Shown in pieces: positions 1-34,230 of a stretch of 35,141 nt of DNA. This DNA comes from Cyanophora paradoxa CCMP329 (lineage: Eukaryota; Plantae; Glaucophyta): NCBI GenBank assembly GCA_004431415.1, contig QPMI01000405.1, positions 1 through 35,141 on the forward strand. Direction: 5' to 3'. The stretch's first letter is position 1. Every line of letters starts with the position of its first letter. Made by a program: the position numbers and the translations under genes. Below the pieces are notes generated by a model, which did no database searches, had not been told where the DNA came from, and worked only from the letters and a program-made list of their open reading frames with translations.

Positions 1-85
1 CTAGAGCGATAACTTGGCACCGAGCGGGCGCAACTTGCGGCAACCTGCAGCTGGCACAGCCTAGGCCTGCAGCTGGCAGCAATCA

Positions 86-6000: not shown

Positions 6001-7999
6001 CCACTCCCTGCTTCCCCCCCCCTCTCCTCCCCCCTTCGCGCCCCTTGCCCTCCGCTGCACAAACTGATCGAGGGGTGCGCAGAAGCTCGGGAGTGACACG
6101 TGCACTGGGGCGTACGTCTCTCCGATGCACCGGGCCGTGTCAGTCGCGCTCTTTGCCGCCGGAGAGCACGAGGAGTGCAGCCGCGTCTGCGATCTCTACG
6201 CCGACGCTGCCCTGAGGATGGCGCGCCCCGCGCCGCGTCGCGGGCCCTCGAGCTCCACTCCGAATAGCACATCATCGCGCAGCGTACACTGACGCCCTGC
6301 GCCCTTCGCAGCACGTGCGGCGGGACGTGCTGGAAGCGTTTTCGTTCCGGTTTCTGTGCCACTTGCGGACAAGGGCTCGCCCGCCATCCTCGACCACATT
6401 GCATCCTGCATCCAGGCGCGCAAACATTAACCGCACTGCGGGTTTCGGCTTGTATATCTTTTTTGGCCCGACTAACACGCGCATTCTCGCGATCGACGTC
6501 GGCAGGCGGCGCTGGAAAAGACGGCGCGGGACCGCGAGCTCTCCAATGAGGTCATCACAGTCGTCTCCACGGTGAGCTGAAGGCCGCTGGGCCAGGCCAG
6601 GCCAGCTTTTCTAGGTCGACTGAAAAACGTGTCCTAATGTAACTGCACGAAAAATGTTTTCTAAAAACGAGACGCGCCCGCGGCAAATTTGCTCTAGATC
6701 TAGATCTGCTTCACTCCGCGCGCGAGCGAGCGTGCAATTTGCAAGCGAGCGTTTCTTGCCTGCTTACGCATCAACGCGTCGGCGGTCTTGGCAGGCGTCG
6801 CTGGTGTTCATTCGCCTCCTACAGGGCCGGGCGCGTGAGGCCCTCGAGGTGCGCCTTCAAATTCCCTCTCCTCCCCCGGCCCTTTTCTCGAGGGGGACGT
6901 CCTTCGAATTCGCGGGAGCTCACAGCGGCGCAGGTAGGGGAGGAGTTCTACCGCGCGCGTTTCAGCGGCGGCTTCGTTTCGGTGGCGGCTTTCAGCCGAG
7001 CGTTCTTCCTCGCCGGCCACTCCCGGGCGCTCCTTTCCGGCTTCGGGCCCCACGCGCCCGCCCCGGGCAGCGCCCTCTCCGCCGTCCAGGCAGGCCCGAA
7101 TATTAATGCTTCCCGAGCACTGCGACACGTTCTGTCACGCATTGAGCTCGAGTCCGCTGCAGGTTGCGCGGCAGGCCGTCGAGCTTCAAATCAGCGATCG
7201 CACCAATCTGGCCAAACTCATAGGGGTGCGCCCTCGCACCCTCTGGATCCCTCGACTTGCGCTGCGCACCCTCTTGATCCGTCGCTTATCGCTTGACCGA
7301 CATCCATGGCCAGCCCGACGTCGTGTGCGAGGCTGCGACGGTGCTCTTCGTCGCGTGGCTCGTGTCGGCCGCCCCCGCCGCGCGCTCGCACCCGGCGGCC
7401 CCCTTCGCCCGCCTCTACCCCCTGCCGGACGCCGCCTCTGCGCCGCCGGCGCCGGCGCCGGCGCCGGCGGTCGGCCCGGCGAGTTGGTCGCTCTCCTGGA
7501 TGCCGCCGCCCGCAACGGCACGCAATGGAACGAAGCGGTGCGTGCCTTTCGATTTTGTTTTAATTTCTCTACCCGCCCCCTCGCGGCGTCGACCGCGGCG
7601 CAGGCGGCGGGCGCCGCGGCGGTCCTGGAGGGCCTCGCTCTGAGCGCGCGCGGCGCGGTGCGGGCGGCGCGCGAGCGCTTCCTCGCGGCGGCCGCGCTGG
7701 GAGGCTGGACCGCCCCCGACCCGGCTCCGGCGCCGCGTCGCCCCCGCGACTGCGCCCTCGGGCTGCTCTTTGCGGCCTTCCACACGGGTGCCCCGCCGGC
7801 GCCTGGCCCGGCGCCGCCTGCCAGCACGGGGCCCGCGCCCAAGCCGCAAAGCCTGAGGCGTCTCGAGCGGGCCGAGCGGCCGGGGCCGGAGCTTCTGAAG
7901 GCAAGCCGGGCGGAGCTGCTGGCGGCGGCCGAGCGTTGCTTCGGGCTCTACAGCGACGCCATCGGTGGCCGCATAGCCCGCGAGGCCGCCCGTATCTAA
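86..7999 (+). CDS. Multi-exon soluble adenylyl cyclase-like protein (two class III nucleotide cyclase domains + STAND AAA NTPase + TPR-like region), host gene
   Basis: Exon pieces read in order: VVALLDLAGFSDL (~545) and YGADVLSFLGDA (~760) = cyclase C1 metal-binding Asp motifs; GSLRQIVLD/DKGLVVIGVFGL, AIGLATGLAFCAFVGD and FGNAVNRAARLM = cyclase C2; LYGREEELA, GDTGLGKS (Walker A), LLVVFE/VHLADSQS (Walker B), SGGVPF, RLDRL, ERRRLH and LLAYHW = ADCY10/STAND architecture. Short GT..CAG introns, e.g. 4335-4413 and 4617-4693, join these in frame. Exact start and exon boundaries are uncertain; stop TAA ends at 7999. Confidence 0.88.
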
Positions 8000-8703
8000 G
8001 CTTGCATTCAAATGATTGATTATGAGCGCACTGCGTCAACCGTTGAACTTCTAATTATTTTGGACGATCCCCACTTCTTCTCTATTTTTCAAGTCACTGC
8101 AGCTGGCATGGCTCAATTAATATTATCAAGTGCACCGTGGCGCAGCCTGGCAGGATGGATAGAGCACTGCGACATTTCTCGCGATTGAATCGTGAGATTA
8201 TTATCTAATATGCTTAAGCTTACAATGAAGACGCTCATGATCAACCCGATCGCGATCGATATCCCGACCGAGGCCTGCATGGCCCAGCGCTATCATAGTA
8301 TCGATATTCATATGAGTCCTGGAACTTGGAAGATATCACGATCATGGCTTCGCGCCGTCTTGGCCCGGCCGCGATTTTCGCGCCGGGGGTGCAAGGGGGC
8401 CCGGGGGAACCGGGATCTAATGAAAGAGTCCTAGTGGCACGCACATGCGCGCGGCAGAACGACCCCGGCCCAGTGCGCGCGGGAGGTCGAAGACTCGAAG
8501 TGTAAAGATAATCACAGATTATGATTGAAAAAATAGAAAAAGCCCGATAAGCACACGCTGCGATCAAGTCGATTAAAAAAAAGACTCAATGAAAGGCCAG
8601 ACTCAGCGCACACTATATCAAAGATTGTTCTGGAGCCAAAAAACGCTGTGCATCAACTCTGTTCGCACAGCCTACCGCTAATTATATAACCCTGAACAGC
8701 TGG

Positions 8704-9300
8704 CTAAAAGATGATGGTGCTGTCTGCAGATCTAGAGGGCTCGCCGTAAACATAGGCGATCCAGGCCTTCTGGAGGGGATCGGGGCGGAAGTCGACCTTG
8801 GGGATGAGCGGCAGCCAGCGGCGCCGGTCCTGAAGAGAGCCGTCTTGCAAGAGCATGGTGAGGCGGCCCGCCGCCTCGAGCGCCCGCAGAGCCGCGCGGC
8901 TGGCGCGCTGCTCGCACCCGCCGCGCATCTGGTAGACAAGGTCTTGAATTTCGACGTCCGCAAGGCTGGCGTCGCGCAGGCGCTCGACGACCCCCTCGTG
9001 GATCCGGAGGTCCTCGATCGCAGGCCTTCATCATGAACAGACATCAGCTATGGGCGATGCACTTCAATCAAACTGCGCGCACCCGACAAATTTAAAGCGA
9101 ACGACGAAGCGATCCTGCCGCCCAGCCGCGAGTGCGTCGACGGTCGCTAAAGCGAAGGCGACGGTTTGCTCGCGCATGGCCATGGGGGGGAAGCCAGCCC
9201 GGTCGGGGAGCTCGCGGACGAGGATGAGCAGCGCTAGCGGCTTCACCGCTTGCGCCGCACGCGCTCCGTCCGCGTTGCAATTGTTGAAATTGGCCGCGCT
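8704..9300 (-). pseudogene. Degraded coding remnant of unknown origin
   Basis: Protein-like segments (ALLILVRELPDRAGFPPMAMREQTVAFALATVDALAAG...; IQDLVYQMRGG...WLPLIPKVDFRPDPLQKAWIAYVYGE) are separated by in-frame stops. No family recognised. Confidence 0.3.
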
Positions 9301-9912
9301 CCGCGCGCGCGCAGCACGAGTGCCGGGCAGCGTGCTCGGCTGCGGGCAGCGGCGCGCGCCTCCGGTTCTGCGCATGCGGTGCAAGCTCGATGCAGTGAAA
9401 AGTAGTCCAGGCGGCACGGGTACCGTGCGGCGTACGGCGCAGTGCGAGGAAGCCGAAATCTAGATCTAGAGGAGACATGTACAGCTAGGGAGCTCGAGAA
9501 GTGCTTGCCAATGTTGCCATGCATATGCAAAACCGCCGCGTGACGCAGCGCACCGCCGCGCGAGCGAGAGGCTGCGCCGAGAGCCCAGATCTAGAGGAGT
9601 GATCATGAGAGCGAAGTTGGTTTTCCCCTCGAAAACCAGTTTTCGCGAGTTCGAGAGAGCTCTCGCGAGCTCGACTTTGACGCTCGAAAGTCGAAGGCTG
9701 ACCGGTCCACCGAGCCAATTTGCAATCCGATGATCGGAATGCGAATAAGCCCCTTTTTTCCCGTGTTGCATACTGGCCCTCGAGCTCGGAAACGGCCTCA
9801 TAGAAAAATTTTGGCTGAAGCGAGGGAACGGGAAGCAAGCTGGGAGAAGCCCTTCGGTCTTCTTCCCCCCTTGCAATCACGATCATGGCTTAGCTGGAGG
9901 GAGCGCTGGAAG

Positions 9913-10650
9913 ATGCAAATGGATCCGGAGCGCTGGAGGACGCTGTTGTTCGACTGGACGAATCTCTTCCATCGGGCAGCGAGATCGAGATCTAGAGGGC
10001 GAGGCGGGGTACGGAACGGAGTGGTGGCCATGGTTGCAAAATTAATTGCGCGTGCATACCCGGACCCCCTCGTCCTCGTCAGAGGAGAGGCGTCGGGGCA
10101 CGAGCGTTTCGAGGACCTTCCCGTCCTGCCCGTGGCGCGCTAAACCGGCGGCCCCGCGCTGGCGCCGCATGCCCAGGGGCGCGGCGGACCGCCGGCGTAC
10201 TTGTTGGGCGAGGCGCGCGAGGAGAGGCGCAGCACAAACGCGCCCGAATCCTGCTTCGAATTCGCTGTGGCCATCCTCTATATAGCTAGATCTGCTGCGC
10301 CGCCTGCGCGCGCGCAAGTCGGGCGGCCATGCCGGCCACACACGTACGGCCCGCGGGGGATGACCGGGGCGGGCGGGGCCGGGCACCTCAAATGTGAGGA
10401 GGGGGTCGCCGAGGCGGTCCGGGCCTTCCAGGAAGAGCCGTTCGAGCTGCGGTACCCCGCGGGCTCGGCCCCGGGGCCGGGGCGGGCAGGTTTTGCAGGA
10501 GTCGCGGCGCGCGGGGCGGGGACCTGCAGCTGGCGGTAGATCTAGATTTAATTGCGCGCGCGACGGGCACGAGCCAGAAGCTGAATGAGCGGAGCTGATC
10601 TGCCGTGTATACGTAGGACTCCTGCTGCGGAAGCTCCGCTGCAGACTCGC
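9913..10650 (+). pseudogene. Degraded coding remnant of unknown origin
   Basis: Collinear protein-like segments (MDPERWRTLLFDWTNLFH..., CFEFAVAILY..., EEGVAEAVRAFQEEPFELRYP) are interrupted by a stop at 10141-10143 and TAGATCTAG-type stretches. Confidence 0.28.
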
Positions 10651-10874
10651 AATCGGCACCGCGCCAACGTGGGTCCAGCAGTACTAGTTCCGGCAAGAAG
10701 CTCCGTGGCACGTGCACCGCACCGATATTGGTGGTGATGATCTAGCCTAGCTATATATATAGTAGAGGAATTCGGTGTACAGCTGGCACCCTTCTCCAAA
10801 TCCTATGGCCCCGCCCTCGAGCTCGTCTCAACCTCGTATACTAGCTCATTTAGCTACTAGTATATACTAATGTA

Positions 10875-11134
10875 CCGTGTAACAGGAAAATACCAGATCG
10901 GAAATTAGTGGATCGTAAAACTTGGCCCTTTCACCGGCGAAATACTGGAGCCCGAAATTAGTGGATCGTAAAACTTTCAGGCTTGTATGGGGCGGTAATT
11001 TGGGGGGTACTGTATGAGGCCGCGTCCCATAAGAGAATTAGTGGAGCTCGAAATTAGTGGACTGAGTCGAAAGTTTGGTCCACTATTTTCCGGCTCCACT
11101 AGTTATCAGCATCCAGTATTATCCTGTTACACGG
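10875..11134. mobile_element. MITE / non-autonomous Tc1-mariner-type DNA transposon (260 bp)
   Basis: TIRs CCGTGTAACAGGAAAATACCAGAT versus reverse complement CCGTGTAACAGGATAATACTGGAT (21/24). TA on both sides (10873-74, 11135-36). Internal repeats of GAAATTAGTGGA(TCGTAAAACTT). No ORF. Confidence 0.85.
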
Positions 11135-11646
11135 TAGGCTAGCTCAGCCTAGCGCCGGCTAGCGGGCCAGTAGTAGCGGCCTGGTGGGACAGGTGGCAGG
11201 TCTGGGACTCTGGGCGCGGGCAATTAACCCCGGGCATTTCGGCTGTGACGGCGACGTCGATAAGCTGTCAGCCCGAGCATGCATATGATAAAAAAAGCCG
11301 GTACGAAATTACGGGTACGTGATCATGAAGCCCCTAAGCGCGGTTCGCACCCTTCGGCTTCACGATAAGTGGTCGTCGGATCCGGAGGCTGTCGCGATCG
11401 GACGCTCCGAGTAGCTCCAAAGAGGAGGACGGTTCTTAAAACACGGGGTACCGAGTTTCCGCTGGGGCGGTGCCGCGGCGCCGCCCGAAGCTTAAGAAGG
11501 CCCTTATAATTACTAGTAGAGTCTGCCAGGCTTGAGGCTTAGAGCCTTAGACCTGCGCGGCTTATATATAATATCAATTAAGCTTGCACTGCGGCCGGGC
11601 AGGCAAGCCCTTGACCCAAGCCCTTGAGCCGGGCTGAGAATTTGTT

Positions 11647-11946
11647 AAAACGCGGTAATTTGGTGCCGCGGGAATACTGTAAGCAGCTTATTATAAGCTG
11701 CAGCCAAGTTGCTCCATACAGACTGATGATACAGTACCCGGTGACCCCCACAATCATTGAATTACCGCCCCACACAACTTGTGAAACAAGCCTCAAGTTT
11801 TCTAAAACGCGGTAATTTGGTACCGCGGTATTCGGCGCCGCGGCGCGGTTGCGGTTACAATGCGGTATAATTCTAACGCGGTAATTTATGTACGTGTTGC
11901 CGGCGTAACTTGCCGCAGTGCGGTAATTCTAATTCCCGTGACGGTA
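11647..11946. repeat. Degenerate MITE-like remnant with repeated AACGCGGTAATTT motifs
   Basis: AAAACGCGGTAATTTGGT(G/A)CCGCGG at 11647 and 11804, shorter copies near 11875 and 11920. It ends in ...GACGG-TA like the right end of the 10875 element, but no matching left terminus was found. Confidence 0.45.
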
Positions 11947-12061
11947 GTAGTAGCCTAGGCTCAGTACTACTAGTACTGAGTCAGTACTACTGACTCAGTA
12001 GTGCGCCTCCCGGAGACTCCGTAGACTGAACCGTAGTCCGGGTTCGTAATAACTTCGTATA

Positions 12062-12299
12062 CTGTAAACGTACTAATATCCGCCAGCACTTTAATTCGAC
12101 AAAACCCGAAAATCCTGTCGAAAATTAGTCCGCCAGCGTCTTGATTTCGACACCCTGCGACTTCGCCATAGAGAGGTCAGCCGCTGGTACCCCTCTCTCC
12201 ATACAAAGGCTTAATTCGCCAGCGTCAAATATTCGACAGCGCGAGGGTCTGGCGAATATAGTCGAAATTAAACGCTGGCGGAAATTCGTACGTTTACAG
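12062..12299. mobile_element. MITE / non-autonomous Tc1-mariner-type DNA transposon (238 bp)
   Basis: TIRs CTGTAAACGTACTAATATCCGCCAGC versus reverse complement CTGTAAACGTACGAATTTCCGCCAGC (24/26). TA flanks at 12060-61 and 12300-01. Internal CGCCAGC...TTCGAC subterminal repeats. Confidence 0.85.
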
Positions 12300-13492
12300 T
12301 ATGTATTACCGTAGTACCTACTACCGTAGTACTAGGCTACTATTAGTAGTAAACGCTGGTGCCACAGTGCCACTGGGCCAGATCTCTGGTGGCCGTCGCC
12401 GACTTTGCCAAGTTGCACGTGGGATTCTCACGCAAGTTAAGATCTACTGCAGTAGAAGGCCTCGCCGAGTCGCGCGGCTCCCGGAGTCCGAGGCTCGCGC
12501 CGCGGGCCCGCGGCGCCCGGCGGCAAGCTCTAGATCTGCAAATTTCCGAGTTCGGCTGCGGCGTTTTAGATCTCAGAGTTTAGATCTTCTCCAGCGTGTA
12601 CGTAACGATGGCGGCCGTATTGGCTAGCGGCTCCACTGCAAGTGCGTGAATTCGCGCCCGCACTGCGGCGCGTGCGGTCGTCCGACGTTGACGTTCAACG
12701 GCTGTCGCGCCTCGAGATCGTATTCGCGTATACGTAGCGTGTCGTATTTACGCATGCGCACGAGCTGATCATAATTTTCGACCCCCATTGCGCAGCCTAC
12801 CCCGTCAACTGCTACTCGCAGACAGGATGCGCGGGCAGCGCAATGTCGTTCGGGAGTGGAGTATCGAGCGTCAACTGCAGCGGTAGACTGTGCGCCAAGA
12901 ACACATGCAGGGATCTCAGCGGAGCGAAATCCGTCATGTTCAACGGCAGCTGCACGAACCTCTCACTCGACGCCGAGACACAGGCGAGCACCCGATGATC
13001 CGCCGCGGGGCGGGGCGGGGCGGCGCCGGCGCGGGCGCCGGCTCAGCCAGCCGCGGCCGGCCCGTCCACGCGCGCGCGGAGCCGGGCCGGGCCGGCCGCG
13101 GGCATCATGCATATATATGAGGGCCAACAATGGGCCAAACGCGAAAAGTCAACCCCGAGAGCTCGAGACTCGGAAGTGACGCTTGGATTGCGGAGGTTCT
13201 TATAACCTCCGGGTCACAGCTGGGGGGTACCGTAGACGAGGCTGGTGATCACCATGATCGCGACGATCGCGATGACGATTCCGATCACGACGATCGCGAA
13301 AACGAGACGATCGCGACCATTTTCGATCGCGATTTCGGGGAGGGGGTCCATTTTGGGCCGGGGTAGAGAAAATAAATGCGAAAAGGCCGAAAAGTGCGTT
13401 TTTCACGCGTGAAATCGATCGAAAACGAGGGTTCGAATCCCGGGTCCGGATTTGGACTTGGGCAAAATCTCGAGTCAAAATGGGAGAAAAAT

Positions 13493-13558
13493 GGGACCTG
13501 GGACTTGGGACTTGGGACTTGGGACTTGGGACTTGGGACTTGGGACTTGGGAAGAGTT
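13493..13558 (+). repeat. Telomere-like heptamer array 1: GGGACCT + (GGGACTT)7 + GGGAAGAGTT
   Basis: Seven perfect GGGACTT units at 13500-13548, read directly from the sequence. Confidence 0.97.
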
Positions 13559-13609
13559 GGAATCAGAGTCTAGACTCAAAAGCGGGGAAATTTTCGGACG
13601 GGGAGAAAA

Positions 13610-13909
13610 ATGTCAGGCAATCTCTATTACGATTTCCCCTTTGAGTTGCATATGGCATTCGAGAGGCTGCGCGAGTTCTGGCGCTGGCACCTCACAGGAC
13701 ATGACATCCCCGACGTAACACCAGAGCCCAACTTACAGGGCGTGCTTGAAGTCATCCGTCAATATCCGCGTCGATTCAATGAATGGATTGAGTTCCACGC
13801 AACGAACCGTTTCCAGAGTCTCCCCGAGGCCATACGCGAAAATTTCGTGAGGCTGGTGGGCCAGGCTACGACAACCCTAACAATCATAGACCACGCCCAG
13901 CTGGCGTGA
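13610..13909 (+). CDS. Viral hypothetical protein (99 aa)
   Basis: Clean ORF with AAAAATG start, preceded by the element's ATTTTCG motif. Globular amino-acid composition. Confidence 0.65.
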   Translation: MSGNLYYDFPFELHMAFERLREFWRWHLTGHDIPDVTPEPNLQGVLEVIRQYPRRFNEWIEFHATNRFQSLPEAIRENFVRLVGQATTTLTIIDHAQLA

Positions 13910-14419
13910 CGCGCGAAGCTCGAAGCGACCGCAGTCTTTTCCGCAGGGAATTGAGAGAGGATAGACGGAGGCTTTCAATGGGGCTCCCGCAGATTGTGAG
14001 GGGGTACAGCCCGGATTACGAGACTTACCAAGAATTGTACGGCTTCGAAAATCCCTTTGAGAGGGTACTACCAGGGTGAGGGGCCAGGGGGGGCCCCTGA
14101 GGGTGTACCCCCGGCCCGAGACTCGACCTTCGGCGGACGCACTCGGGCGATTTCCGTCAGGCCGGCTCCCTTTTTCTGCCTTCGGCCCAACGCTAAATTT
14201 GGCTTTTTTCAGGCCAGTTGGCAACGTTTTCCGTTGCGAACTAGACCGCGAAAAAAATCGCCCACAAAACCGCGGTCCGCCGCCATTTTGGCTCACTCTT
14301 GAAACGGGTTCGCCGCCTTCTCTCAGCCCAAGGAATCCCCGCCTCTCCGAATTTTCACAAGTCCGCTCTCTCAGTCACCTCACGTTTTGCCTTTGCTGAT
14401 CTCTCTTCCCTTTGCGCAG

Positions 14420-15474
14420 ATGTCGATTCCCTCTGAGCTTGTCGAGGACCTTGCCAAGGCCCGTGAGATGTGGGCTAAGTCCCGCGATTGGCCTACCCGT
14501 GAAATGGAGAAGCGTGCCCGCAAGCTGGGGTACCTCTACCAAGCTCACAGCGGAGAAGGCTTCCATACCATCAACCTCAACTTTGTATCCACCCTTCTGC
14601 CCAAGTCCAAGCAACCCAAGCCCGAGCCCAAGCCCGAGCCCGTCGACGTGCCCCCCGTCCCCGGCTGGGTCAAGACTCCCACTGGCTGGGGCGACCCCAA
14701 GCTTTTCGCCGAGTCTGCCGCCGAGACGCTCGCCTGGGCCTATCCCCCTCAAGTCTTCACGAATTTCCCCCTCCGTCATCGTCGTCATCTGCCCCTCAGC
14801 CCGTCGCCGAGCCCGCTCCCGAGCCAGTCGATGACGCCGAGTCCGAGGCCTCTGACGCCGAGTCTGACATCAACGACTTTATCGACTTTGACGTGCCGAT
14901 TCCATACGACTCTGAGTCCTCTTCCGACTCTGAAGGCGACAACGAAAACCCGACTCGCAAGCGCCGCATTATCAAGACCAAGTCAATCGTCAAGAAGAAG
15001 TTCATGGAGACCACGTCATTCACCGACAACTCCGAGCGAGTCAAGAATCCCGCCAAGGAACACGAAAAAGACTTGAAGATCGGCGCTGGCATTGCCCGTT
15101 CTCGCGTCACGTCACACTTCAGCAAGCGCCTGACTCAGCACGTCAAGACCATTGAGAAGCGCATCATCGCCAAGCGCGAAATGGCCGAACTCCGGCGCAA
15201 GTTGCGTCACGAGCGCCTTCTTCGTCGCGAGATGACGCTGGCCAAGATTGCCGAGCGCAAGAAGAAGGAGGCAGCGGAACTTAGGGCGCGCGTCGAGGCT
15301 CAGCAGCGGCGCGAGGCAGAGGCGGCAGCGGCCTTGGCGGCGCAGCGCGAGCAGGAGCGGCAGGACTTAGTGCAGGCAGCGCAGGCCCTTCCCCGCATTC
15401 CCCTTAAGTCCGCGCCCGAGGCCCCGATTGACTTGGTTTCCGATGACGATGATTCTGACTTTGAGATGCTGTAA
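14420..15474 (+). CDS. Viral hypothetical nuclear protein (acidic tract, NLS-like RKRR, coiled coil, C-terminal SIM-like motif); one frameshift near 14770
   Basis: MSIPSELVEDLAKAREMW... (frame of ORF 14387) joins ...DAESDINDFIDFDVPIPYDSESSSDSEGDNENPTRKRR...APIDLVSDDDDSDFEML (frame of ORF 14893) at a C-run around 14767-14771. Consistent codon bias across both parts. Confidence 0.7.
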
Positions 15475-15545
15475 ATAGTATTGCGTCATTCCATTGTACA
15501 TACTTGTAAAAATTGGCCGACTATTCAGTTATGACTTGGCGCGAT

Positions 15546-15607
15546 CCTGGGACTTGGGACTTGGGACTTGGGACTTGGGACTTGGGACTTGGGACTTGGG
15601 AAGAGTT
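15546..15607 (+). repeat. Telomere-like heptamer array 2: CCT + (GGGACTT)7 + GGGAAGAGTT
   Basis: Seven perfect units at 15549-15597 with the same immediate flanks as array 1. Confidence 0.97.
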
Positions 15608-15887
15608 AGACTCAGGGTCTGGGCCCAGACTTTCTCTGGATCTGAGAGTTTGCCGTGCCAAGTCCCTAACCACCGGGCAGACTTAGAAAGGGGTACGGAA
15701 ATTTGGATACGACGTTTCTGGTGACATTCCAGGTGAGATTTCAAGCGAGGTAGAGTCTGAACTGGTGTACGACTTGTAGCATGATACTGGACATGAAAGC
15801 TCACGAGAGTATGCAACCGAAAAAGGATGTGAAGAGGGGTAGGAGTATTCGTGCGAGATGTCGAGAGAAGGAGGGTACGAGATGGGA

Positions 15888-15945
15888 TACGAGTAAAAAA
15901 GACTACGAGTAAAAAAGAGTACGAGGGGTGGTAGGAGTAAAAAAG
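15888..15945 (+). repeat. Short tandem repeats TACGAGTAAAAAAGA(C/G) in a purine-rich non-coding spacer
   Basis: Two 16-bp units at 15888-15919, a partial TACGAG at 15920 and GAGTAAAAAAG at 15935. Confidence 0.8.
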
Positions 15946-16020
15946 TCGGTAGAAAAACTCACCTGACTTGTCTGACAAATTTCTGATCCTGGAGAAAGTC
16001 TGGGCCGGGACCTGGGTTTC

Positions 16021-16068
16021 AACTCTTCCCAAGTCCCAAGTCCCAAGTCCCAAGTCCCAAGTCCCAGG
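16021..16068 (-). repeat. Telomere-like heptamer array 3 (inverted): CCT + (GGGACTT)5 + GGGAAGAGTT
   Basis: Five AAGTCCC units at 16031-16065 on the + strand, flanked by AACTCTTCCC and AGG. Confidence 0.97.
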
Positions 16069-16089
16069 TTTTTCTGAACCTAGGGCAAA

Positions 16090-16455
16090 ATGGCCCTGCT
16101 CCGGTGCACCGACTCGCAAGACGTCGCCTACAACGTCCTGGTCAACTCGGACGTACCCCCGAGTGCCTTGGAGTTTCCCTGGAGAGTGGACAGGGACAGG
16201 GTGAGCAAGACGTTTGGAGGGCGCAAGCACTACCTCTCCCAACTGATCCTCGGGAAGTCGCCACGTGGACGCTACGTGGAACACATCAACGGCAACCCGC
16301 TGGACTACAGGAGGGAGAACCTGCGCTGGGCATCAATGTCGGATATTCGCAAGAAGAGGAGGGGGTACGCCAATTTACAGGAGAAGAGCGAGGAGATTCG
16401 GGAGATGATGGAGGCGGCACAGGCGCTAATGCAGCTTAGCCAGTCTAGACGCTAG
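16090..16455 (+). CDS. HNH endonuclease-fold protein (HNH_3-like), possibly catalytically degenerate
   Basis: YLSQLILG...YVEHINGNPLDYRRENLRW matches the phage/NCLDV pattern xxHRxxxG...VDHINGxxLDNRxxNLR. Start context TTTTTCTGAACCTAGGGCAAAATG. Confidence 0.8.
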   Translation: MALLRCTDSQDVAYNVLVNSDVPPSALEFPWRVDRDRVSKTFGGRKHYLSQLILGKSPRGRYVEHINGNPLDYRRENLRWASMSDIRKKRRGYANLQEKSEEIREMMEAAQALMQLSQSRR

Positions 16456-17257
16456 TGGTGTGAATCTTGGTGTCGTACTCGCGACCAACCGTTTCCCAGG
16501 CCACGTAAACTTCGGCTCCGGCGCCTGGCGCTGTCGAGTTGGTAGTCGCAGTCGTGTAGTCCGCCTCTGCCTCAATTAGTTCGGCCATGAGGGTAGAGCC
16601 CACGACCATTCCAGAGGTAGGCATTCCGGCGATGTTGTTGTACAATTTGAAAGTGAATTTCGTGAAGAGGAGCCGGGGCCAGACCTGGGTACGGGGATTC
16701 GAGGCGCCGTATGAATAATCGGTACCCGAGGCGCCGCCCGTGGTGGCATTCGTCATCATCTCCTTTGCGGTCATCTTCCAGAGGTTGTACATCTCAAAGG
16801 GAACGGCCTGCGTGGTCTTGTGTGTGGCATCGATGAGGGCGCCATCTAAATGCGTTTTGATGTTCGGATTCGCACCATTCCCGAATTTGCGAGTGAGGGC
16901 GGTGTTAGCGGTGAACTTGAGTTCGAGCACGCGAATGGCGGGCCGATCAGGCACAGAGGGCTCTATCTTTTTCAGGAGGCCCGAGAGCCAGAGCGCCTCC
17001 GCCTCATCCGCGCTCACGCCCGAGTCGATGTCAAAGTACACGTACACGGAGCAGGAGGCGGGATTCTCGAAATCGTTGGAGGTGACGCGCAACATGACGG
17101 GATTCTGGACCCTCACGGTGAGCGGGGTGGCGTAGTTTCCGTCCCACTCCACCTTGTCCGTCCCTGCGTTGGCCACGTTCCCAGCGTTGCCGTAGAAATC
17201 GGGGACGATCGAGCCGGCAGACACGGTCTTCACGATGGTGGCCGAGGTGGTCGGCAT
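16445..17257 (-). CDS. Viral protein of unknown function, probably structural (270 aa); paralog of 17281-17961
   Basis: Intact ORF rich in T/G/N and beta-strand-like segments. Shares QNPV, SGLxKK, LExKF, NPR...PR..FT.F.F and AEL.E blocks with the adjacent gene. Confidence 0.75.
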   Translation of the reverse strand: MPTTSATIVKTVSAGSIVPDFYGNAGNVANAGTDKVEWDGNYATPLTVRVQNPVMLRVTSNDFENPASCSVYVYFDIDSGVSADEAEALWLSGLLKKIEPSVPDRPAIRVLELKFTANTALTRKFGNGANPNIKTHLDGALIDATHKTTQAVPFEMYNLWKMTAKEMMTNATTGGASGTDYSYGASNPRTQVWPRLLFTKFTFKLYNNIAGMPTSGMVVGSTLMAELIEAEADYTTATTNSTAPGAGAEVYVAWETVGREYDTKIHTTSV

Positions 17258-17280
17258 TTTGCGACCTCAAATGAGAAAGA

Positions 17281-17961
17281 TTATCCGTGAAAGAGGGTGA
17301 TGTCGCCACCGATGTTCATGACGCGGGCCCCAGGCACAGAGTCAGCGTCGGTGCCGTACGCGTAGGAAATCGAGCACTCACGCAGCTCCGCGCAGAGGCT
17401 GGCGCCCGTGCTGAAGTGGGGCTGGTCGGCGGCGTAGGAGAGGGGGAAGACCTGGAACCTGAAAAAGGTGAAGGGGAAGCGGGGTAGAGTCGAGCCGCGT
17501 GGGTTGCCGCCCGTGTAGAGGGCCCCCAGGGTCGCGGGACTTGGATTGAATTTCGTGAAGAGCACGTCGCCCTTGAGCGTACCCCTCATCTGGTAAGTTC
17601 CCGTACCCGGAAGATTCGAAGAACTGGGGTACCGGTTCACGGTGGGGCCGTACCCCGTCTCCCTGAACTTGACCTCGAGACAGCGCAAGACGTTGGCAGT
17701 GGCCGTGGCAGGTGCCACCTTTTTCACGAGTCCTGATTCGTGCAGCAGCTCGATAACCTCTGCGCTGAGGCTCAGAGGGTCGAAGAAGAGCTGGTAGGAA
17801 TAAATCTTGGGCGTGGCGTAGGCGTTCTGAACGACCTGAATCACGACGGGATTCTGCAGAAAGACGTCGACGTAACTGCCGGAGGGTATGCGTGCGAAAT
17901 CCTTGGTGTTGTTGCCAACGTCAAGTGAGCCGCTGAGGGTCTGGTACCAGTTGGAAGTCAT
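17281..17961 (-). CDS. Viral protein of unknown function, probably structural (226 aa); paralog of 16445-17257
   Basis: Intact ORF with the same conserved blocks as its neighbour. Confidence 0.75.
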   Translation of the reverse strand: MTSNWYQTLSGSLDVGNNTKDFARIPSGSYVDVFLQNPVVIQVVQNAYATPKIYSYQLFFDPLSLSAEVIELLHESGLVKKVAPATATANVLRCLEVKFRETGYGPTVNRYPSSSNLPGTGTYQMRGTLKGDVLFTKFNPSPATLGALYTGGNPRGSTLPRFPFTFFRFQVFPLSYAADQPHFSTGASLCAELRECSISYAYGTDADSVPGARVMNIGGDITLFHG

Positions 17962-18000
17962 TTACCCCGGGGCAGATATTTTTTCGGATCGTAGAGGAAA

Positions 18001-20135
18001 ATGCCCCGCTTCGTATTCGTGAAAAAGCAGGTGGTGCAGGCTCCGCAGTATGGCGTGGAGCCGATCTCGCTGACTGTGGGCAGGCCCCAGGTGCGATCGG
18101 GCTCCGTGCTCAACAACGGGAACAGTACGTACGGCTTTCAGCTGAACTGGGTCGCGGTCACCAACGCCGTCAAGTACAAGGTGTACAGGGCGACCAGCAT
18201 CAACGGCCCCTGGGATCTCGTGGCCACGGTGAATGCGCCAACCGTCACCTACACGGACTCTCCCTTTAGTTTGGGGGCCCAGCGACTCTACCGCGTGGCG
18301 GCGGTTCGCGAACAGGGCAGCAGCAGCACGGGCTCTGATGGCAAAGCCCCGCCCACAACCTACGCACAGTCGCTTCTCTACACCCACGAGGGTGCCATGA
18401 GCAATTACATTCTCTTCCAAGGCATAGGCGGCTTCAGCCCGCAGATCGAAGCCTACACCACGCTCACGACCGCCACGGCCCAGACCTACGGCGATTTTAT
18501 TGCCGGGGCGGCCCCGCGTCTTCGGGCTTCCCGAAACCCGCCATAGTCGTCACAATCAACTGGGTGGCCATGGAGGGCGCGGACTCGATTCGAATTTACA
18601 GGAACGGTACGCCAATCGGATTTGCGAGCAGTGCCCTGTCTACCTCGTACATTGACGATAGCACTGCTCTTACGTGGGGCACGGAATACTCTTACCAGGT
18701 GGCCGGCATCGTGGGCGGTGTCGAATACGACAAGTCCGATCCGCTCCTGGTCTGGACTATGCCAAACGCCCCACGAACGTGACGGCATCAGCACCCAACG
18801 ACCAGCAGCAGCCTGTCAGCCTCAGCTGGACTGCGTCCACGGGAGCGACGGGATACAAGATTTACAGAGACGGGGCCTACCTCACAGACTCCGCGACCAA
18901 CTCCTACAGCGACACGACCACCGTCTGGGGTACAGGGTACGAGTACCAGATCTCCGCGACGAACACGGGAGGGGAGGGGCCGAAGAGTATTGCGGCGTAC
19001 GTCACCACGGACCCGGGGCGCCCACTGGGCTCACTGCAACCCCCGCGGCGGGGCAGCACAGCCTGTTGTGCTCGAGTGGTCGGTGCCGGTGACGGGCGTC
19101 ACCGTCTCCTACAACATCTACAGGGGTGGCGTGTTCCTTGCCAGCGACACGAGCAGCCCCTTTTCGGACACAACGACCGTTTACGGAACCACTTACACTT
19201 ACACCATCAAGGGCGTCAACCAGATCGGCGAGGAAGGCCCTCAGTCCTCGTCTGCCAGTGCAACAACTGCAAACGCTCCTGTTTTGGGTACATTCTCCTA
19301 CACCGGGGCCGACCAGACTTTCGTAGTACCAACGGGGACTGTGGCTGTGCGTGTCATCGTATGGGCGGCCGGGGTGGAGGCGGAGAACGCGCAGGTACGG
19401 GGGTCCGTGGAGGCGCGGGTGCTTGCGTAGTTGGTACATTGGCTGTGTCCTCGGGGAGACGCTCATCCTTGTTGTTGGATGCGGCGGCCCAAAGGGTGTA
19501 TCGGGGACTGCCACTGCTACCGTCTACGGAGGTGGTGGAAGGGGCTGGAGCCATAGCGTCGATCCGGAGTACAAAAACGGCGCCGGTGGTGGTCGTTCTG
19601 CAATTCAGCGCGTTGCAGGGACCGACTTGGTTGTTGCAGGGGCCGGAGGTGGGGGTACATGTGATTCGAATGGCGGCGGGGGAGTAGGCGGGGGTTGACC
19701 GGTGGTGCGGCTGGGTTGGTTGGAGTAACCGGAGAGATACCGGCTCAAGGAGGCACCCAAACCGCTGGCGGAGCCGGTGTTGTGGCCTCAGGGGCCAGGC
19801 CCAGCAACCCGGGAACTTTGCGCCAAGGTGGAGAGACTGGGCCTGATTCAAGCGGCTACAGGTTCGGTGGTGGTGGTGGTGGTGGTTACTTCGGTGGAGG
19901 CTCTGGGTCCAGCAGGAGCGGAGTGTCAGAGAACCCAATAGCAAGAATGTTTGGAGGTGGCGGTGGCTCGAGCTACATAGGAAACTTGACGGATGCTACG
20001 GTGTATCCTGGGTCCGGCCAGGTGGCAGGAAATAGCGGAGACGCTCACTACGCAGCAGGCATTGGTAGGGGCGGCAACGGTGGCTCGTCTTTCAGCGACG
20101 GTGGCAACGGTCGAATTGTGATACTCGCGGTGTAG
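18001..20135 (+). CDS. Fibre/adhesin-like protein: several fibronectin type III repeats + C-terminal glycine-rich domain (frameshifted; could be two genes)
   Basis: FN3 signatures LNWVAVTNAVKYKVYRA, IRIYRNG...YSYQVAG, LSWTASTGATGYKIYRDG...YEYQISATNTGGEGP and LEWSVP...YNIYRGG...YTIKGVNQIGEEGP. These are followed by FSYTGADQTFVVPTG...WAAG and GGGGGGYFGGGSG...GGGGGSSY...GGNGRIVI, typical of phage/ALK-type Gly-rich domains. Confidence 0.82.
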
Positions 20136-20155
20136 TTATTCCTAGTTGTTCCAGA

Positions 20156-21220
20156 TCAGCTCGCCAGTGCCGCTACCTGGTCTTTGAGAGTTTGAACTTC
20201 TTGTGAAAGTTCCTGAATTGCCTTCAACGACAGGGAAATGAGCCTGTCGTAGTTTACCCCGAGAAATCCATCCGCGTTCTCGAAAACGAGACTCGGGAAG
20301 ACGCCTTGGACTTCCTGTGCGATGAGACCGTAATCCGTTTTCGAACCCCCGAGGATGTGTTCTTCCAGGTGAACGACACGGGATTCAGCTGCAGCAGAAG
20401 AGGGAGAATGCCCGACATGCTCGCGACATTTTCTTTCAGGCGGCTATCGCTCGACGAGTTTGTCAGGTATCCTTGAGCATCCGAATAAACGGCTCGGTTT
20501 CCATCGCCCGTGAGCGTCGAGACGATGAGCCGACCCGTGATGCCAACGCCGACGGTTCCGCACAGCAGTCGTTCGGTGCCGTTGTTTCTCAAGGATAGAC
20601 CAGAGCTGACGCTGACGCTTCCGCTATCAACGATTGAAGTGTTTGCTATGCTTAGGCCATTAGTAGGGCCTTCGATTGCCGAGGTAAATAGAGTACCTGT
20701 AACACCAACGCCAAGAGTCCCACAGAGGAGTCTATCGTTTTCGTTGTACTTTATAGCTACGCCTGAACCACCGCCATTTATGTACGGTGACGTTCCGGTA
20801 ATTTGCAGCTTATCGTCCAATGTAACGATGCCCGCCAAGTTTGAAGCCCCGCTCACCCTAAGCCCCCCACCACGTTTGCTCCGCCTCCTTGCACATACAG
20901 AGCCGCATTCCCCTCCCCGTTCACAGTCCCATTAAAGGTCACCTGATTCGTGGTGTACCCGCTCCCGTCCCAGGCCCCGTTCGTGACGGTGAGCCTCTGC
21001 GTCCTCACGCGCCCCGGCACGGCCGACCCGCCCTCCCGCGTGCGCATCTTGTCGCAGCGCAGCTCGCCGACGCGGACGAGGTCGGCCTCGGAAAAGGGGA
21101 CGGCCGTGGCGTTGTAGGGGCCTCGGTGGCCTGGTTTCCGAGGGTGGTCTCCTTAATCGTGTGATCGCCCTTGTGATTCACGCTGGCAGCATAGGTAAAT
21201 AGAGGGACAGCGACCGACAT
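20156..21220 (-). CDS. Tail-fibre-like protein with C-terminal intramolecular chaperone (Peptidase S74 domain); frameshifted
   Basis: SSDSRLKENV...LLQLNPVSFTWK, then in a shifted frame YGLIAQEVQGVFPSLV...GVNYDRLISLSLKAIQEL, the canonical S74 motif set. The upstream region has RLLCGTxGVGxTG repeats. Confidence 0.85.
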
Positions 21221-21244
21221 TTTTGGATTGCATCAGAAAATCGA

Positions 21245-24200
21245 TTACATAAGCAGCTTGCCGATCGCGGTCCAATGAATAAAAAGCTGGACAATTTGGG
21301 TGGGCGTGACCGTCATTCTGGGTTGGAATCTCACTTTAACTGTAAAGCCAGTGTGACTCACCGCCGTGACGTTGGCCCCGTAGAAATCGACATCCGTGCT
21401 GCCGCCGGGATTGATGTCGAACGAGGGGGTTACGTTAATAACCGGCGTTGGGTTTGCTGGGGTCCCCAGTCCGCCTCCAGTGTCGTACGCCTGTCCGAAT
21501 GTAATGTTGAACGTCACCGTGTATGTTGAATTGATGTTAAACTCCGTGTACGCAGCGTAGGAGTGGAAGGACGTGCCGTGCGTTATGTACGCATCCATGT
21601 TCACGTTTCTGTGCCCGTGGCTGGTGAGCGAGTACTCTGTGTGACTGTGCGTAGAGGGTGGGAAGGAAGTGGGTCGGTCGATGACATTATCCCAGTACAC
21701 ATTGTGACTGTGTGTAGAGGGGGGGAAGGTAAGTGGCTTGCCCGTTACGTTGTCCCAATCCACGGAGATGTTCGTCAAGTCCGGGGCCGTCCAGTCGCTG
21801 ATCTGAGAGATGGTGTGCTGGTGGTCTGCGTGGGGATACGTACTCGGCTTCCCCGTGATGCTATCCCACGCCCACGTTGTTGGTATCACGGGTATCGTCG
21901 GCCTCCCGCTGAGATCTGCATACGCCCCCGTGTGTGCCACCGTCGCCAGCTGCGGCACGGCAACGCCCACGGTGCTCACGGCCTGGCTCGCCCCGGCGCC
22001 ATGTGCCACTCGTAGTTCTGCGATGCAAACACGGGCTGGCCTGGCTCGGGCGCCCAGTACTCGATGCCTTTGGCGATCTTCTTGGTGTATGGTGCTGCAG
22101 GCCTGTCAACCAATTTATCGACGTAGGCCTTGGGTACCAGCCAGTTTGCCTTGGGGCTCTGCGAATTGATCCCGTTGTCTATGAAGGCCCCGTAATTCCT
22201 GAAGGCCTCGGCCTCCCACCAATCCTGCATGCGGAAGGTCCCGGGAATCTCGAGGCGCGAGTTGGCGTCCGCCAGGCGGGCCACCTGCGCCCTCCGTTCG
22301 ACGAGACGCCCGAGTGACGGATGGCCGAGCCGAATTCGCGCCTTAGGGCTTCGATGTGATTGATCCTGTTGAGGCCCTCCTGGTAGACGGCAATTAAGAC
22401 GCGCTTCCGCCCCTTGGTCTCCTCCTTTATCATCTGCTTCAGGTCGCGCATAAGTCGACTCAGGGCGAGCGAAGTCGACCCGAAGCCCTCCTGCATTTTA
22501 ACGGTGAGCTGGGAGAGGAAGAGCACGGTCGCGCGATCGATTTCGAGCAGGGTCTTCTGGTCCTTGGGGTACGGTAATCGTTGATGCTGTTGTCGAGCGC
22601 GCGAATGAAGGCCTGCAGCTCCTTCGGCTCCTTGATTTCGTTTAACCGCAGCTCCTGGGCCAAGAGCGAGGCCATTTCGCGCGCCTCCGAGGGTCGTACA
22701 CACCCAAAAATCCGGAGCCCAGCTCGCCCTCCAGCCGATTAATTCGGTTGCGCAGCTGGCTCGCCTCGTCGCCCCACGTCTCGACGCCCCAGTCGTAGAT
22801 CTGTTGCGAGAGCTCCGCGATGAACTGTATGGTGTCGGTCGCCCAGTCGACGGGGTACTTGAAAAAGTTCTTCACGATTTCTTCCGCGCTGCGCCCGTTG
22901 ATGATATCCACGATCACCTGCGCGATGGCGCCCGCGAGGATGGACAGGCCAAGTCCGCCCACCGTGCCGATCCTCATTTTCGTGAGGGCGCTCAGGGCGG
23001 ACGACATGCCCGTCTGAAGGCCAAAAGAGCCGACCGTCATGATCATCTGATCGCGGAACGTATCGAAGAACTCGGCCTCCCCTATCTTGCCCTGCGAGAG
23101 CGCCTGGTAGGCCGAGAGCAGGCCGCCGGCCGTCGCCAGCCCAAGGCCCGCCGCCGCCGCGCCCGCCCGCCGCATGGCCCGCGAGCCCGTACCCCCGAGC
23201 CCGGCGCCCACCAAGTCGATACCCGCCCCTGAAATAAATCGGCTGCCCCGAAAGACATGCCGTCGTTGTTCGCCGTACCCGCCGCCGAGAAGAGCGTCTC
23301 GGCGCTGAGGGCCTCCTTGGCCACCCCGGGCCGCCTTGCCCTCGGGCGCCCCAGGTACGCGTCGCGCTGCTCTTTGGTGGTGAATCGCTCGAGGTCGAAA
23401 TCGGCGAGGGCGTCGGCGGTGGCGCGGTTCCAGTCGCCGTAGGGCATGAGGGCGTTGCGCAAAATAACGTCCGAGTCGCCCATCACGCGCCTGTCGAGCG
23501 TCTGAAACACGCCCTCGGAGGGCAGGCGGGCGGTGCCCGGGCGCATCTCCTCCACGGAAACGTCGTCCCTCTCCGCGAGTGTGATGTCGTCTGGGCTGGC
23601 CAAGCCGACGCCCGCGCCCTCATCGGCGTACGCCCTTCCCTTCGTTTTAATATTTGATTGGCCTCCCGTTTCAATGCTTGGTACTCTGTCTCTACCTTGG
23701 TCTTTCTTGCCTCTTCCTCTGCCGCCTTGCGCTCTGCGATCTTCCGCCTCTGCTCTTCTATCTCGGCGTTGCGTCTCGCCGCGTTCTCCTTGGCTTGCTG
23801 CTTCCGCTCTTCGATCACCCTGTTTGCGTACTCCTTGTCCGCTTGGGCCTTTCTGTAGCGCTCCTCGATCTGACTCTTGGCCTCGTCTCCTCTCTTCCTT
23901 AGATCGCCCATGAATGCCGTCGTATCTATGTGAATCTTGTATTTGGCGGGTGGGTGCTCACGTTTGAAGGCCTCCAGATCGCGCACCATGGCATCGTACT
24001 GCGCGAGCCCCTCCGCTGGAATGATGGCTCTTCGCATTTCCCAAAATTTGCTCAGCTTGCCCACGTAATCGACCATGGAGAGGTACGCGCTCTGTGCGCC
24101 CGCGCTCACCGTTTTCGGATTGGCTCGCAGCTCTGCCAAAAACTCCCCTTTTGTATCCGGTACAGTGACCATTCGAGGGCTCCCCGCCACAGGCTCGCTT

Positions 24201-30246: not shown

Positions 30247-31087
30247 TTACACGAGCTTTACAGCGCCCGTCTCGAGGGCCTCTACCGTCTTCGTAATGTA
30301 CAGCTGCAGCAGATCCTTAAGGTTGCTCTGCGGCAGCAATTTTACGTCTACGTGCATCTGCCTGGCGGTTTCTCGCTTCCTGTAGCCCGTCTCCTTGCCC
30401 GTCCACTGCATGCCGAGGGCGTCCTTTCTCCGTATCGGCCGCACCGCCGTCTTCTGGTACTCCTCCCCGAACCAGTCGTCCTTGTAGAAATTCGGCAGGC
30501 CGCCCTGCCCTCCGTTTGCATGAACTTGATGAGGAAATCCGACGCCTTCTTGCCGTCGAATTGCACGCGCGAGTAGTGCACCAGCGTGAGCAGGATGTGC
30601 GCGTGGAGCCGCCCCGACCGCGGCCCGTACTCGATGCCGATGTTCGCGTTGCCCTTCTCCACGTGCGTGTCGTACTGGTCGGACTTGAAATCGAAGCCCT
30701 TGGGGTTCGCCTTGTCGGGGTACACCCCATCTTTATGCACCGCGCCAGCTGCCTGTCGTCGTAGAAGAGGGCCTCCAGCCCCCTGTGAAACGCGTCCTGC
30801 ACCTTGGAGCCCTCTCCCCTGCTCCGCGGCTTGTAGTTGGTCTGGATGGTGATCATGAAATTCGACTCGCGCTGCGGCCGATCCTCCCCGTTCAGTTTCC
30901 TCACGGGCGCCGCGTCCAGCACCTTCTGGAACCACGTCTTGTCGGGCGCCAGCACCTTGTCGTTGATGTTGCCCACCACGATGTGCGTCTCTACCCGGGA
31001 GCGGCCGGAGGCGTCCATGCGGAGGTGAGGGTTCGGTGCCCGGGCTTGCCTGTTTGCTGCCACGCCCCTCGCGATGAGGTTGAGCAT
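30247..31087 (-). CDS. HUH endonuclease (rolling-circle Rep-like); frameshifted
   Basis: Motif I SNFMITIQTN, motif II GIEYGPRSGRLHAHILLTLVH, motif III LLQLYITK, spread over three chained frames. Confidence 0.85.
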
Positions 31088-34198: not shown

Positions 34199-34230
34199 CC
34201 CCTTCATTCAGATTTTCTTGCGACCCTGGG

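Follow-up and report, generated by a model that had tools for sequence, protein, structure and literature searches.

Two questions attach to mriyaviruses: by what mechanism their replication begins, and how integration proceeds with no integrase. The rolling-circle model of their replication comes from gene content only. Both are raised by an endogenous relative of these viruses in Cyanophora paradoxa, a glaucophyte alga. The window analyzed here is the whole 35,141-nt stretch of strain CCMP329 contig QPMI01000405.1. Near the left end of its viral element stand three tandem arrays of the heptamer GGGACTT, and these arrays are copies of one ~90-bp non-coding viral cassette. We tentatively favor the reading that they are iterons, predicted binding sites through which a terminal origin would load the HUH initiator of viral replication. 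A discrete candidate origin and two candidate binding proteins in a culturable alga make both questions testable with short DNA probes.

The viral element and its left boundary

The element is a multi-copy, endogenous mriyavirus-like virus in the C. paradoxa genome. It encodes an A32-type packaging ATPase (32938-33972, minus strand; Pfam Pox_A32, 362 homologues), a VLTF3-like protein with a TFIIB zinc ribbon (31318-32157, plus strand), and a RuvC-like resolvase (34171-34674, plus strand; Pfam Ydc2, E 3e-5; PHROG RuvC-like, E 0.014), three genes expected of Mriyaviricetes (Gamadviridae-like). Homologues of the VLTF3-like gene occur in 77 of 80 related loci, and one of them matches Pox_VLTF3 at E 4e-17. 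Two further genes carry HUH motifs. The long one (28197-29372, minus strand) has a HAH motif and matches, in pairwise comparison (E 1e-7), an ORF from L076, a related locus. The short one (30317-31087, minus strand), which in this copy lies in more than one frame, likewise matches an ORF of locus L011 (E 8e-10). HUH duplication is a mark of Gamadviridae, and here both genes are assigned by motif and pairwise homology; neither has a Pfam or PHROG family match or a phage match, a profile built from the motif has no match in the window, and a single-sequence fold model of the long protein (pLDDT 49) was unusable. For the major capsid protein, SF3 helicase, VLTF2 and PDDEXK, no match to related-locus ORFs was obtained in the window, which ends inside the element. 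Pfam identifies no integrase among the scanned ORFs, and no site-specific recombinase is seen in the window.

In the available text of PMC11253617, Gamadviridae-like Mriyaviricetes have an A32 ATPase, VLTF3, a RuvC-like protein and two HUH-motif genes in an order similar to that seen here, and HUH-dependent rolling-circle initiation is predicted. Like the mriyaviruses in that text, this element has no visible integrase or polymerase. The available part of 10.1101/2025.04.19.649669 describes an endogenous mriyavirus in a Glaucocystophyceae assembly, the same host class as here. The integrated virus has already been reported; a description of its cis elements was not found in the literature, the available portions of these two sources do not describe them, and the word "tandem" is absent from that of PMC11253617.

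The left boundary of this copy is a zone at 13026-13178, where single-copy DNA passes into multi-copy DNA. The single-copy contig ends at 13025 and has a depth of 100.5 in sequencing run X1. A 232-nt contig at 13178-13409 has a depth of 2488 in X1 and 270 in X2, compared with 72-104 and 8-25, respectively, for single-copy pieces. Since the drop falls between 13026 and 13178, the nearest array lies at least 320 nt inside. The sequence-only reading had placed the arrays at the virus end. They are indeed near it but lie inside, with ~0.3, 2.4 and 2.9 kb between them and the left end, and they are not terminal.

The terminal region has features of its own. A perfect hairpin at 13191-13211, with an 8-bp stem and a 5-nt AT-rich loop, is a candidate nick site. 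It is one of three such hairpins in the 22-kb viral part, and 13 nt separate it from the point where the high-depth contig begins; its distance to the nearest array is ~290 nt. Degenerate CpG-rich 9-mer repeats follow at 13256-13317, then a 14-bp palindrome at 13401-13414, and the first 2.5 kb of the viral part contain four of its nine perfect palindromes of at least 12 bp. A high-depth variant in X2 omits 13212-13307. In six sequencing runs that we guess to be RNA, the fraction of words present from 13100-18000 is 0.46-0.61; one of the six, X15, has no cover at 13207-13470, and we draw no conclusion on expression from these runs.

This boundary bears on the proposal that the arrays are telomere mimics driving homology-based integration. 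HHV-6 and Marek's disease virus carry G-rich, short-period telomeric arrays near the end of the viral genome. The arrays here resemble them in period, in G-richness and in lying near a viral end; no integrase is seen among the ORFs scanned, integration genes are reported absent from mriyaviruses, and a related integrated element, Phaglo-G, is described in the available text as flanked by short tandem repeats. The unit itself differs from the telomere repeat known for the host class. That repeat comes from Glaucocystis, whose telomerase produces TTAGGG, and the best ungapped identity of the array is 14/42 to it and 24/42 to TTTAGGG. Unlike the herpesvirus arrays, those of C. paradoxa are short (35-49 nt) and internal. 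The virus-host junction is not in or at an array, as high-copy, non-array viral DNA fills the space between the boundary and the first array at 13500. Nor did this copy insert in telomeric DNA on its left side, where the 13-kb flank consists of an interspersed repeat and then GC-rich unique DNA; no telomere tandem occurs in the window. Telomere mimicry is largely refuted for the left end of this copy, and it is the least probable of the readings considered here.

Three copies of one cassette

The arrays are A (plus strand, 13500-13548, seven units), B (plus strand, 15549-15597, seven units) and C (minus strand, 16031-16065, five units). All are perfect, and each has the 3-nt 5' and 10-nt 3' boundaries first described. 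A and B are direct repeats 2049 nt apart (13497 versus 15546), in agreement with the ~2.05 kb first given. The equal copy number also ascribed to the arrays applies to A and B but not to C. No other perfect period-7 array of at least four copies occurs in the window, and none of 200 shuffled windows contained any 7-mer array of five copies. The window contains the core 7-mer 22 times where 3.1 occurrences would be expected, a count that none of 100 shuffles reached. Arrays with common boundaries far exceed chance.

In each case, the array is the core of a ~90-bp cassette. Cassette A (13497-13577, plus strand) and cassette B (15546-15637, plus strand) consist of the heptamers, the common 3' flank, and a palindrome 17-19 nt past the array (12 bp at 13566-13577 and 14 bp at 15617-15630, respectively). 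Cassette C (15991-16068, minus strand) is inverted and has an imperfect palindrome. The 5' flanks have nothing in common beyond the 3-nt boundary. Likeness continues past the 3' boundary first described (24/30 nt for A and B, 21/30 for A and C, 31/40 for B and C), which makes B and C an inverted repeat of 89 nt with 88.8% identity (15559-15645 and 15982-16069). Between the facing arrays lies a non-coding spacer (15601-16027) with a GC content of 0.48, A-runs, a 16-bp repeat at 15888-15925, and six TACGA motifs against 0.40 expected (0 of 2000 resamplings). The viral genome is tightly packed, and the cassettes lie within its largest non-coding blocks. An Rfam search gave chance-level matches only.

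Two readings of the arrays follow from their composition and geometry. The first is that they work by forming G-quadruplexes, which would stall replication or transcription or would tag single-stranded intermediates for packaging. The G3-N4 periodicity supplies 8, 8 and 6 G-tracts, and the folding potential put forward from the sequence is real. It is not special: G4Hunter scores are moderate (1.25-1.32), and the arrays are three of 21 canonical motifs in the window, seven of the other 18 being viral. Moreover, a G-quadruplex would need neither invariant loop letters nor a conserved 3' flank, and we regard this role as improbable.

In the second, the cassettes serve as recombination sites, and a genetic switch would operate by excising the A-B block or by inverting B-C or A-C. 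The cassettes offer 75 nt of direct homology and 89 nt of inverted homology, and the element encodes a RuvC-like resolvase. Against this, inversion of B-C would flip only non-coding DNA, no site-specific recombinase was seen in the window, and of 25 checkable contigs, 24 keep the ~351-aa gene of the A-B block beside the 270- and 226-aa genes. The sequence-only reading raised excision of this 13.5-15.5 kb block, which looks rare and is not supported as a common event. A recombination switch is very improbable.

Left-end genes, other copies and relatives

The arrays stand among genes that they may control. A 99-aa orphan ORF (13610-13909, plus strand) starts ~60 nt past array A and has no match in Pfam, PHROG or the representative library. 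The ~351-aa gene (14420-15474, plus strand) is in two frames in this copy and encodes acidic, basic and charged-helical stretches. It is preceded by a putative 58-nt 5'-UTR intron (14362-14419, plus strand) with donor-, branch- and acceptor-like sequence, which would end at the start codon. Its family counts 56 sequences in 29 clusters, from a single Cyanophora proteome and 55 distinct contig names; Pfam, PHROG and Atlas gave no lead, and alignment to metagenome contigs accepted none of 589 candidates. A terminal inverted repeat holding this gene was considered and rejected, as the 56 sequences map to 55 contig names and the sole repeated name reflects adjacent fragments.

Downstream of cassette C is a 121-aa HNH-fold protein (16090-16455, plus strand; Pfam HNH_3, E 3.3e-7; model pLDDT 84). 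Its best PDB structural match is I-HmuI (E 0.012), PDB sequences gave no significant match, and 35 viral HNH proteins match at E<=0.001. The same Cyanophora proteome holds 13 such sequences under 18 accessions. Tyr and Ile stand at two aligned positions, the Tyr in 11 of 11 aligned sequences. We take these positions to be those of the two Asn of active HNH nucleases; with the Asn replaced, a DNA-binding role would suit the protein.

Operator or enhancer function is a close rival of the iteron reading, and a possible one, though it is given a lower probability. In this reading, the arrays would be bound by a host factor or by the neighboring HNH-fold protein and would set latency against early expression of the left-end genes, possibly with looping of A to B/C. 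Arrays A and C end ~60 and ~21 nt before the starts of the 99-aa ORF and the HNH gene, C abuts a T-run found upstream of most viral starts, and B and C alike are upstream of the gene for the HNH-fold protein. RNA polymerase subunits are missing from mriyaviruses, which probably rely on the nucleus, and an intron-like leader precedes the 351-aa gene. CpG is absent from the arrays; their host methylates 32% of CpG, with a preference for its viral genes (PMC12344493). Several points weigh the other way. A and C are opposite in orientation to their genes, 8 of 13 checkable contigs have no HNH model between the 270-aa and 351-aa genes (absence or missed prediction), and the catalytic-residue reading of the HNH-fold protein is tentative. 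If the cassettes are early-gene operators, they would be candidate latency controls of a methylation-silenced endogenous virus.

Other copies and relatives show how far the arrays are kept. In a second, diverged copy (contig tig00021441, P0145), array B is kept with its seven units and the flanks on either side, and 29 of 30 residues are identical to B without gaps when read through a translated gene model. The contig carries a 351-aa gene of another type and is therefore not this copy. The comparison covers one array (B) in one other copy, by way of that gene model. We rejected the view that the arrays exist to be translated as part of a reading frame, and the P0145 exon is taken as a mis-prediction. 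Arrays of this kind were found in none of 81 distant-relative loci (~50% ATPase identity; up to 10 kb on either side, with ends mostly missed) and at no locus in a pattern scan of viral contigs. A protein scan of viral contigs gave no close relatives, and the ATPase clade had one distant locus among 190 metagenome candidates. Three of 82 related loci have duplicated, inverted non-coding cassettes of their own, all standing before genes. L062 has two 200-bp cassettes in which inverted tandem 8-mers face each other across an AT-rich center, and L063 and L064 have a common inverted pair of 43-44 nt. Repeats at L024 (1-258) and L052 (2177-2700) were rejected as analogues, being coding-like with triplet spacing. 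The relatives' cassettes before genes, and A and C close to starts, also fit transcription control.

Finally, the arrays may be neutral: a minisatellite of viral or host origin that arose by slippage, was copied in three short duplications, and is homogenized by slippage and conversion among dozens of copies. Common boundaries alone do not prove function because duplication of one cassette gives them. Copies look mosaic, so conversion is likely active, and the array is in none of the 81 related loci. Slippage and gene conversion can likewise keep arrays uniform. On the other hand, the 19 units contain no substitutions, whereas the 3' flanks are 55-70% alike after the first 10 nt. Perfect units beside flanks that differ by 30-45% point to selection on the unit. 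The diverged copy keeps the unit number, GGGACTT arrays are absent from the 13 kb of host flank (window 1-13177), and the genome is otherwise tightly packed. Neutrality is unlikely, and the view that the arrays form a conserved viral module and not random slippage is upheld by the perfect arrays within diverged flanks and the seven-unit B of the second copy.

A candidate origin compared with known systems

The preferred reading is that the heptamer runs are iterons of a terminal origin. The candidate origin comprises a hairpin, iteron runs, and a facing pair across a lower-GC spacer. The HUH initiator would bind the heptamer runs and nick at the terminal hairpin or a cassette palindrome, and DNA opening would occur in the spacer between B and C. 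As with baculovirus hr elements, these sites may in addition enhance early genes close by, and G-quadruplex folding would be secondary. The HUH-motif genes, the position of the terminal hairpin, and the analogous architecture in relatives would fit such an origin, and the tandem direct repeats lie in non-coding DNA, as in iteron-type HUH origins. The hairpin and cassettes could further form an HUH-recognized attachment site, where HUH strand transfer, similar to that of AAV Rep or Helitrons, would integrate and re-mobilize the virus without an integrase. This extension is doubtful; if true, it would account for the dozens of insertions, with defined ends, of a nucleocytovirus relative that lacks an integrase in a glaucophyte genome.

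In the available text of PMC4753449, HUH origins combine tandem direct repeats with a separate nick hairpin: RepB of pMV158 binds 11-bp and 7-bp repeats and nicks ~80 bp away, and AAV5 Rep binds 4-bp repeats. The replicon in C. paradoxa likewise carries short tandem direct repeats and, apart from them, a hairpin, together with an HUH-motif gene. It differs in having three cassettes over 2.5 kb, in two orientations and with genes between them, which is unusual for a single rolling-circle origin. Furthermore, the hairpin is ~290 nt off, the virus belongs to a class of 35-45-kb dsDNA viruses, and the binding sites are predicted.

Baculovirus hrs are several dispersed, non-coding repeat-plus-palindrome cassettes that could serve as both origin and enhancer. 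By that definition, the three intergenic repeat-plus-palindrome cassettes here are hr-like. Unlike hrs, they are clustered at one end and have a heptamer period, and their palindromes are short and non-identical.

Anatomy of the array cassettes

The window contains three perfect heptamer (GGGACTT)n arrays: array A (13500-13548, plus strand, seven units), array B (15549-15597, plus strand, seven units), and array C (16031-16065, inverted on the minus strand, five units). The positions and common boundaries (3 nt on the 5' side and 10 nt on the 3' side) given by the sequence-only reading hold for all three. They are the sole perfect period-7 arrays with at least four copies in the window, and none of 200 shuffles produced one. 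The 3' flanks are alike for 30-40 nt (A/B, 24/30; A/C, 21/30; B/C, 31/40), and similarity among the 5' flanks ends at the 5' boundary, which argues that a cassette of ~90 bp, the array plus its 3' flank, was duplicated. All 19 heptamer units are perfect, whereas the duplicated flank has drifted, and these invariant units suggest that a protein reads the heptamer. A palindrome follows the array in every cassette: it is perfect in A (12 bp) and in B (14 bp), where it comes 17-19 nt past the array, and imperfect in C. A 427-nt non-coding spacer with a GC content of 0.48 separates the facing arrays B and C and holds six TACGA motifs, against 0.40 expected. The G4 scores of the arrays are moderate (1.25-1.32), and they are three of the 21 G4 motifs in the window.

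The left end and the telomere question

Contigs from four of 24 sequencing runs were placed on positions 5000-13470. Single-copy DNA stops at 13025, and a 232-nt contig at 13178-13409 has ~25-fold depth in run X1, depth being a rough guide to copies only. The boundary of the window copy thus falls within 13026-13178, which puts the nearest array 320 nt or more inside the virus. A perfect hairpin with an 8-bp stem lies at 13191-13211; together with the arrays and the lower-GC spacer, it forms a cluster at the left end of the virus. In run X2, a variant at high depth lacks 96 nt (13212-13307), suggesting a second left-end subfamily. The 35 nt at 13111-13145 open a 2658-nt contig of run X15 that then runs into other sequence and could represent a different insertion, the opposite end of the virus, or a repeat of the host.

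The left flank is a high-depth repeat patchwork from ~8100, with GC-rich unique DNA beyond it. The patchwork (8100-13025), which separates the unique host DNA from the virus, consists of lower-GC interspersed repeats with many short palindromes and includes a MITE-like 42-nt inverted pair (12059-12100/12261-12302). A GC-rich and apparently intron-split host gene occupies 500-6300; by eye, its pieces resemble what we take to be an adenylate cyclase plus a P-loop protein, and its tested ORFs have no Pfam match.

The arrays had been proposed to mimic telomeres and to permit HHV-6-type integration. In the glaucophyte Glaucocystis, telomerase synthesizes TTAGGG (PMC3622300), and a term search of the Cyanophora assembly paper (PMC6704402) found no mention of telomeres or viruses. 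Compared with a TTAGGG array, the heptamer array agrees at no more than 14 of 42 positions, and a telomere tandem is absent from the whole window. Because the repeat is unlike TTAGGG, the arrays are internal, and the flank is non-telomeric, the proposal fails three defining tests at the left end of this copy. A loose end is Phaglo-G, a related integrated element described as 'flanked by short tandem repeats' (10.1101/2022.07.28.501842). We consider the arrays real, viral, and not telomeric, and they are probably functional.

The viral element and its copies in Cyanophora

Rightwards of the arrays are an HNH_3 gene, fn3 and peptidase S74 domains, a TFIIB-type zinc ribbon, an A32 ATPase, and a RuvC-like gene. 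By the definition in PMC11253617, the element fits Gamadviridae-like Mriyaviricetes; neither capsid nor helicase turned up in the window, whose right end falls within the element. Previous reports cover endogenous Mriyaviricetes from an assembly of Glaucocystophyceae (10.1101/2025.04.19.649669) and the methylation of viral regions in C. paradoxa (PMC12344493). Of 362 homologues of the ATPase, the closest are in one proteome whose accession strings name Cyanophora paradoxa. Two ATPases 83-89% identical to that of the window (P0003 and P0004) lie on contigs of 3.4 and 8.2 kb that are not from EukProt, indicating that close relatives exist outside the Cyanophora proteome. A VLTF3-like gene is common to 77 of 80 related viral loci, and two HxH-motif genes of the element have counterparts among the ORFs of loci L076 and L011. 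Fibre-like genes at 18001-22009 have an fn3 domain, a glycine-rich stretch, a peptidase S74 chaperone, and a weak H-lectin match. Many viral genes of this copy are split over more than one frame.

The 351-aa gene between A and B (14420-15474, plus strand) follows an intron-like 58-nt leader (14362-14419) whose last base directly precedes the start codon; most other viral starts are instead preceded by a T-run and A-rich context. It is represented by 56 sequences on 55 named contigs, all from Cyanophora. In a hand count of gene numbers, where accessions with identical sequence appear under one name only, it lies at most three genes away in all 13 named contigs with a 270-aa neighbour model and in 12 of the 13 that have a 226-aa one. 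With 24 of 25 distinct contigs keeping the gene nearby, the suggested excision of the A-B segment is not a common event. The N-terminal third of the protein (14420-14776) occurs in several distinct types and the middle is near-invariant across copies, suggesting mosaic exchange. On tig00000443, EukProt gene numbers (ATPase g757, 351-aa g782, HNH g783) reverse the window order, possibly reflecting a head-to-tail or permuted copy, as expected of rolling-circle products.

The spliced model P0145 on tig00021441, one of 228 proteins, is translated across array B from the minus strand; 29 of 30 residues match, without a gap, implying seven units and both flanks of B there. The neighbouring 351-aa model is of a different type, so this contig is another copy. 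Neither A nor C turned up in any other copy. Array retention across copies rests on this one case, and neutral duplication with homogenisation, an improbable origin of the arrays, therefore keeps a small share of the probability.

Candidate roles and related systems

In HUH origins, tandem repeats occur together with a nick hairpin that stands apart from them (PMC4753449). Given this analogy, the invariant units, two HUH-motif genes, and the clustering of hairpin, arrays, and spacer at the end, we tentatively favor the arrays as candidate iterons of a terminal origin; protein binding and all later steps are what we infer. Early-gene control is a close second, possible if doubtful: A and C stop ~60 and 21 nt ahead of start codons, the arrays contain no CpG in a CpG-methylating host, and the adjoining HNH-fold protein (model pLDDT 84; best PDB match I-HmuI, E 0.012) may have lost its catalytic residues, judged by what we take to be the HNH motifs.

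No close free-living relative was found in the viral and metagenome contig collections scanned. Perfect G3 tandems are absent from 81 loci around distant ATPases, and no non-triplet array is present at two places in 82 related loci, both sets mostly missing genome ends. Local inverted repeats of some kind occur in 25 of the 82, and L062, L063, and L064 stand out. The mriyavirus-like contig L062 has two 200-bp intergenic palindromic cassettes (4518-4721 and 11991-12199) that are 75% alike; in each, inverted tandem 8-mers face one another over an AT-rich center. One cassette precedes a 1038-aa ORF, the other lies between VLTF3 and a YqaJ-like gene, and they look like origins or early promoters. 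L063 (431-472/1583-1624) and L064 (271-314/1201-1244), two different viruses, have a common 43-44-nt inverted pair that brackets a small ORF directly ahead of a 635-668-aa gene. The cassette architecture recurs in the group; the array sequence does not. L076 (587-867) has a pair of long hairpins between genes, one of 78 nt (95%) and one of 81 nt (79%), next to short direct repeats.

In the literature searched, mostly open papers and with the motif itself not a query, neither cis elements of mriyaviruses nor the heptamer arrays are described. Term look-up found no cis-element account in 10.64898/2026.06.19.733378, PMC12220804, or PMC12210455 and zero matches in PMC10120064. The form of the cassettes within the mriyavirus class appears undescribed so far; the virus is already known, as are iteron or hr-like cassettes as a kind of element. 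Origin and early-gene control roles can coexist, as in baculovirus hrs.
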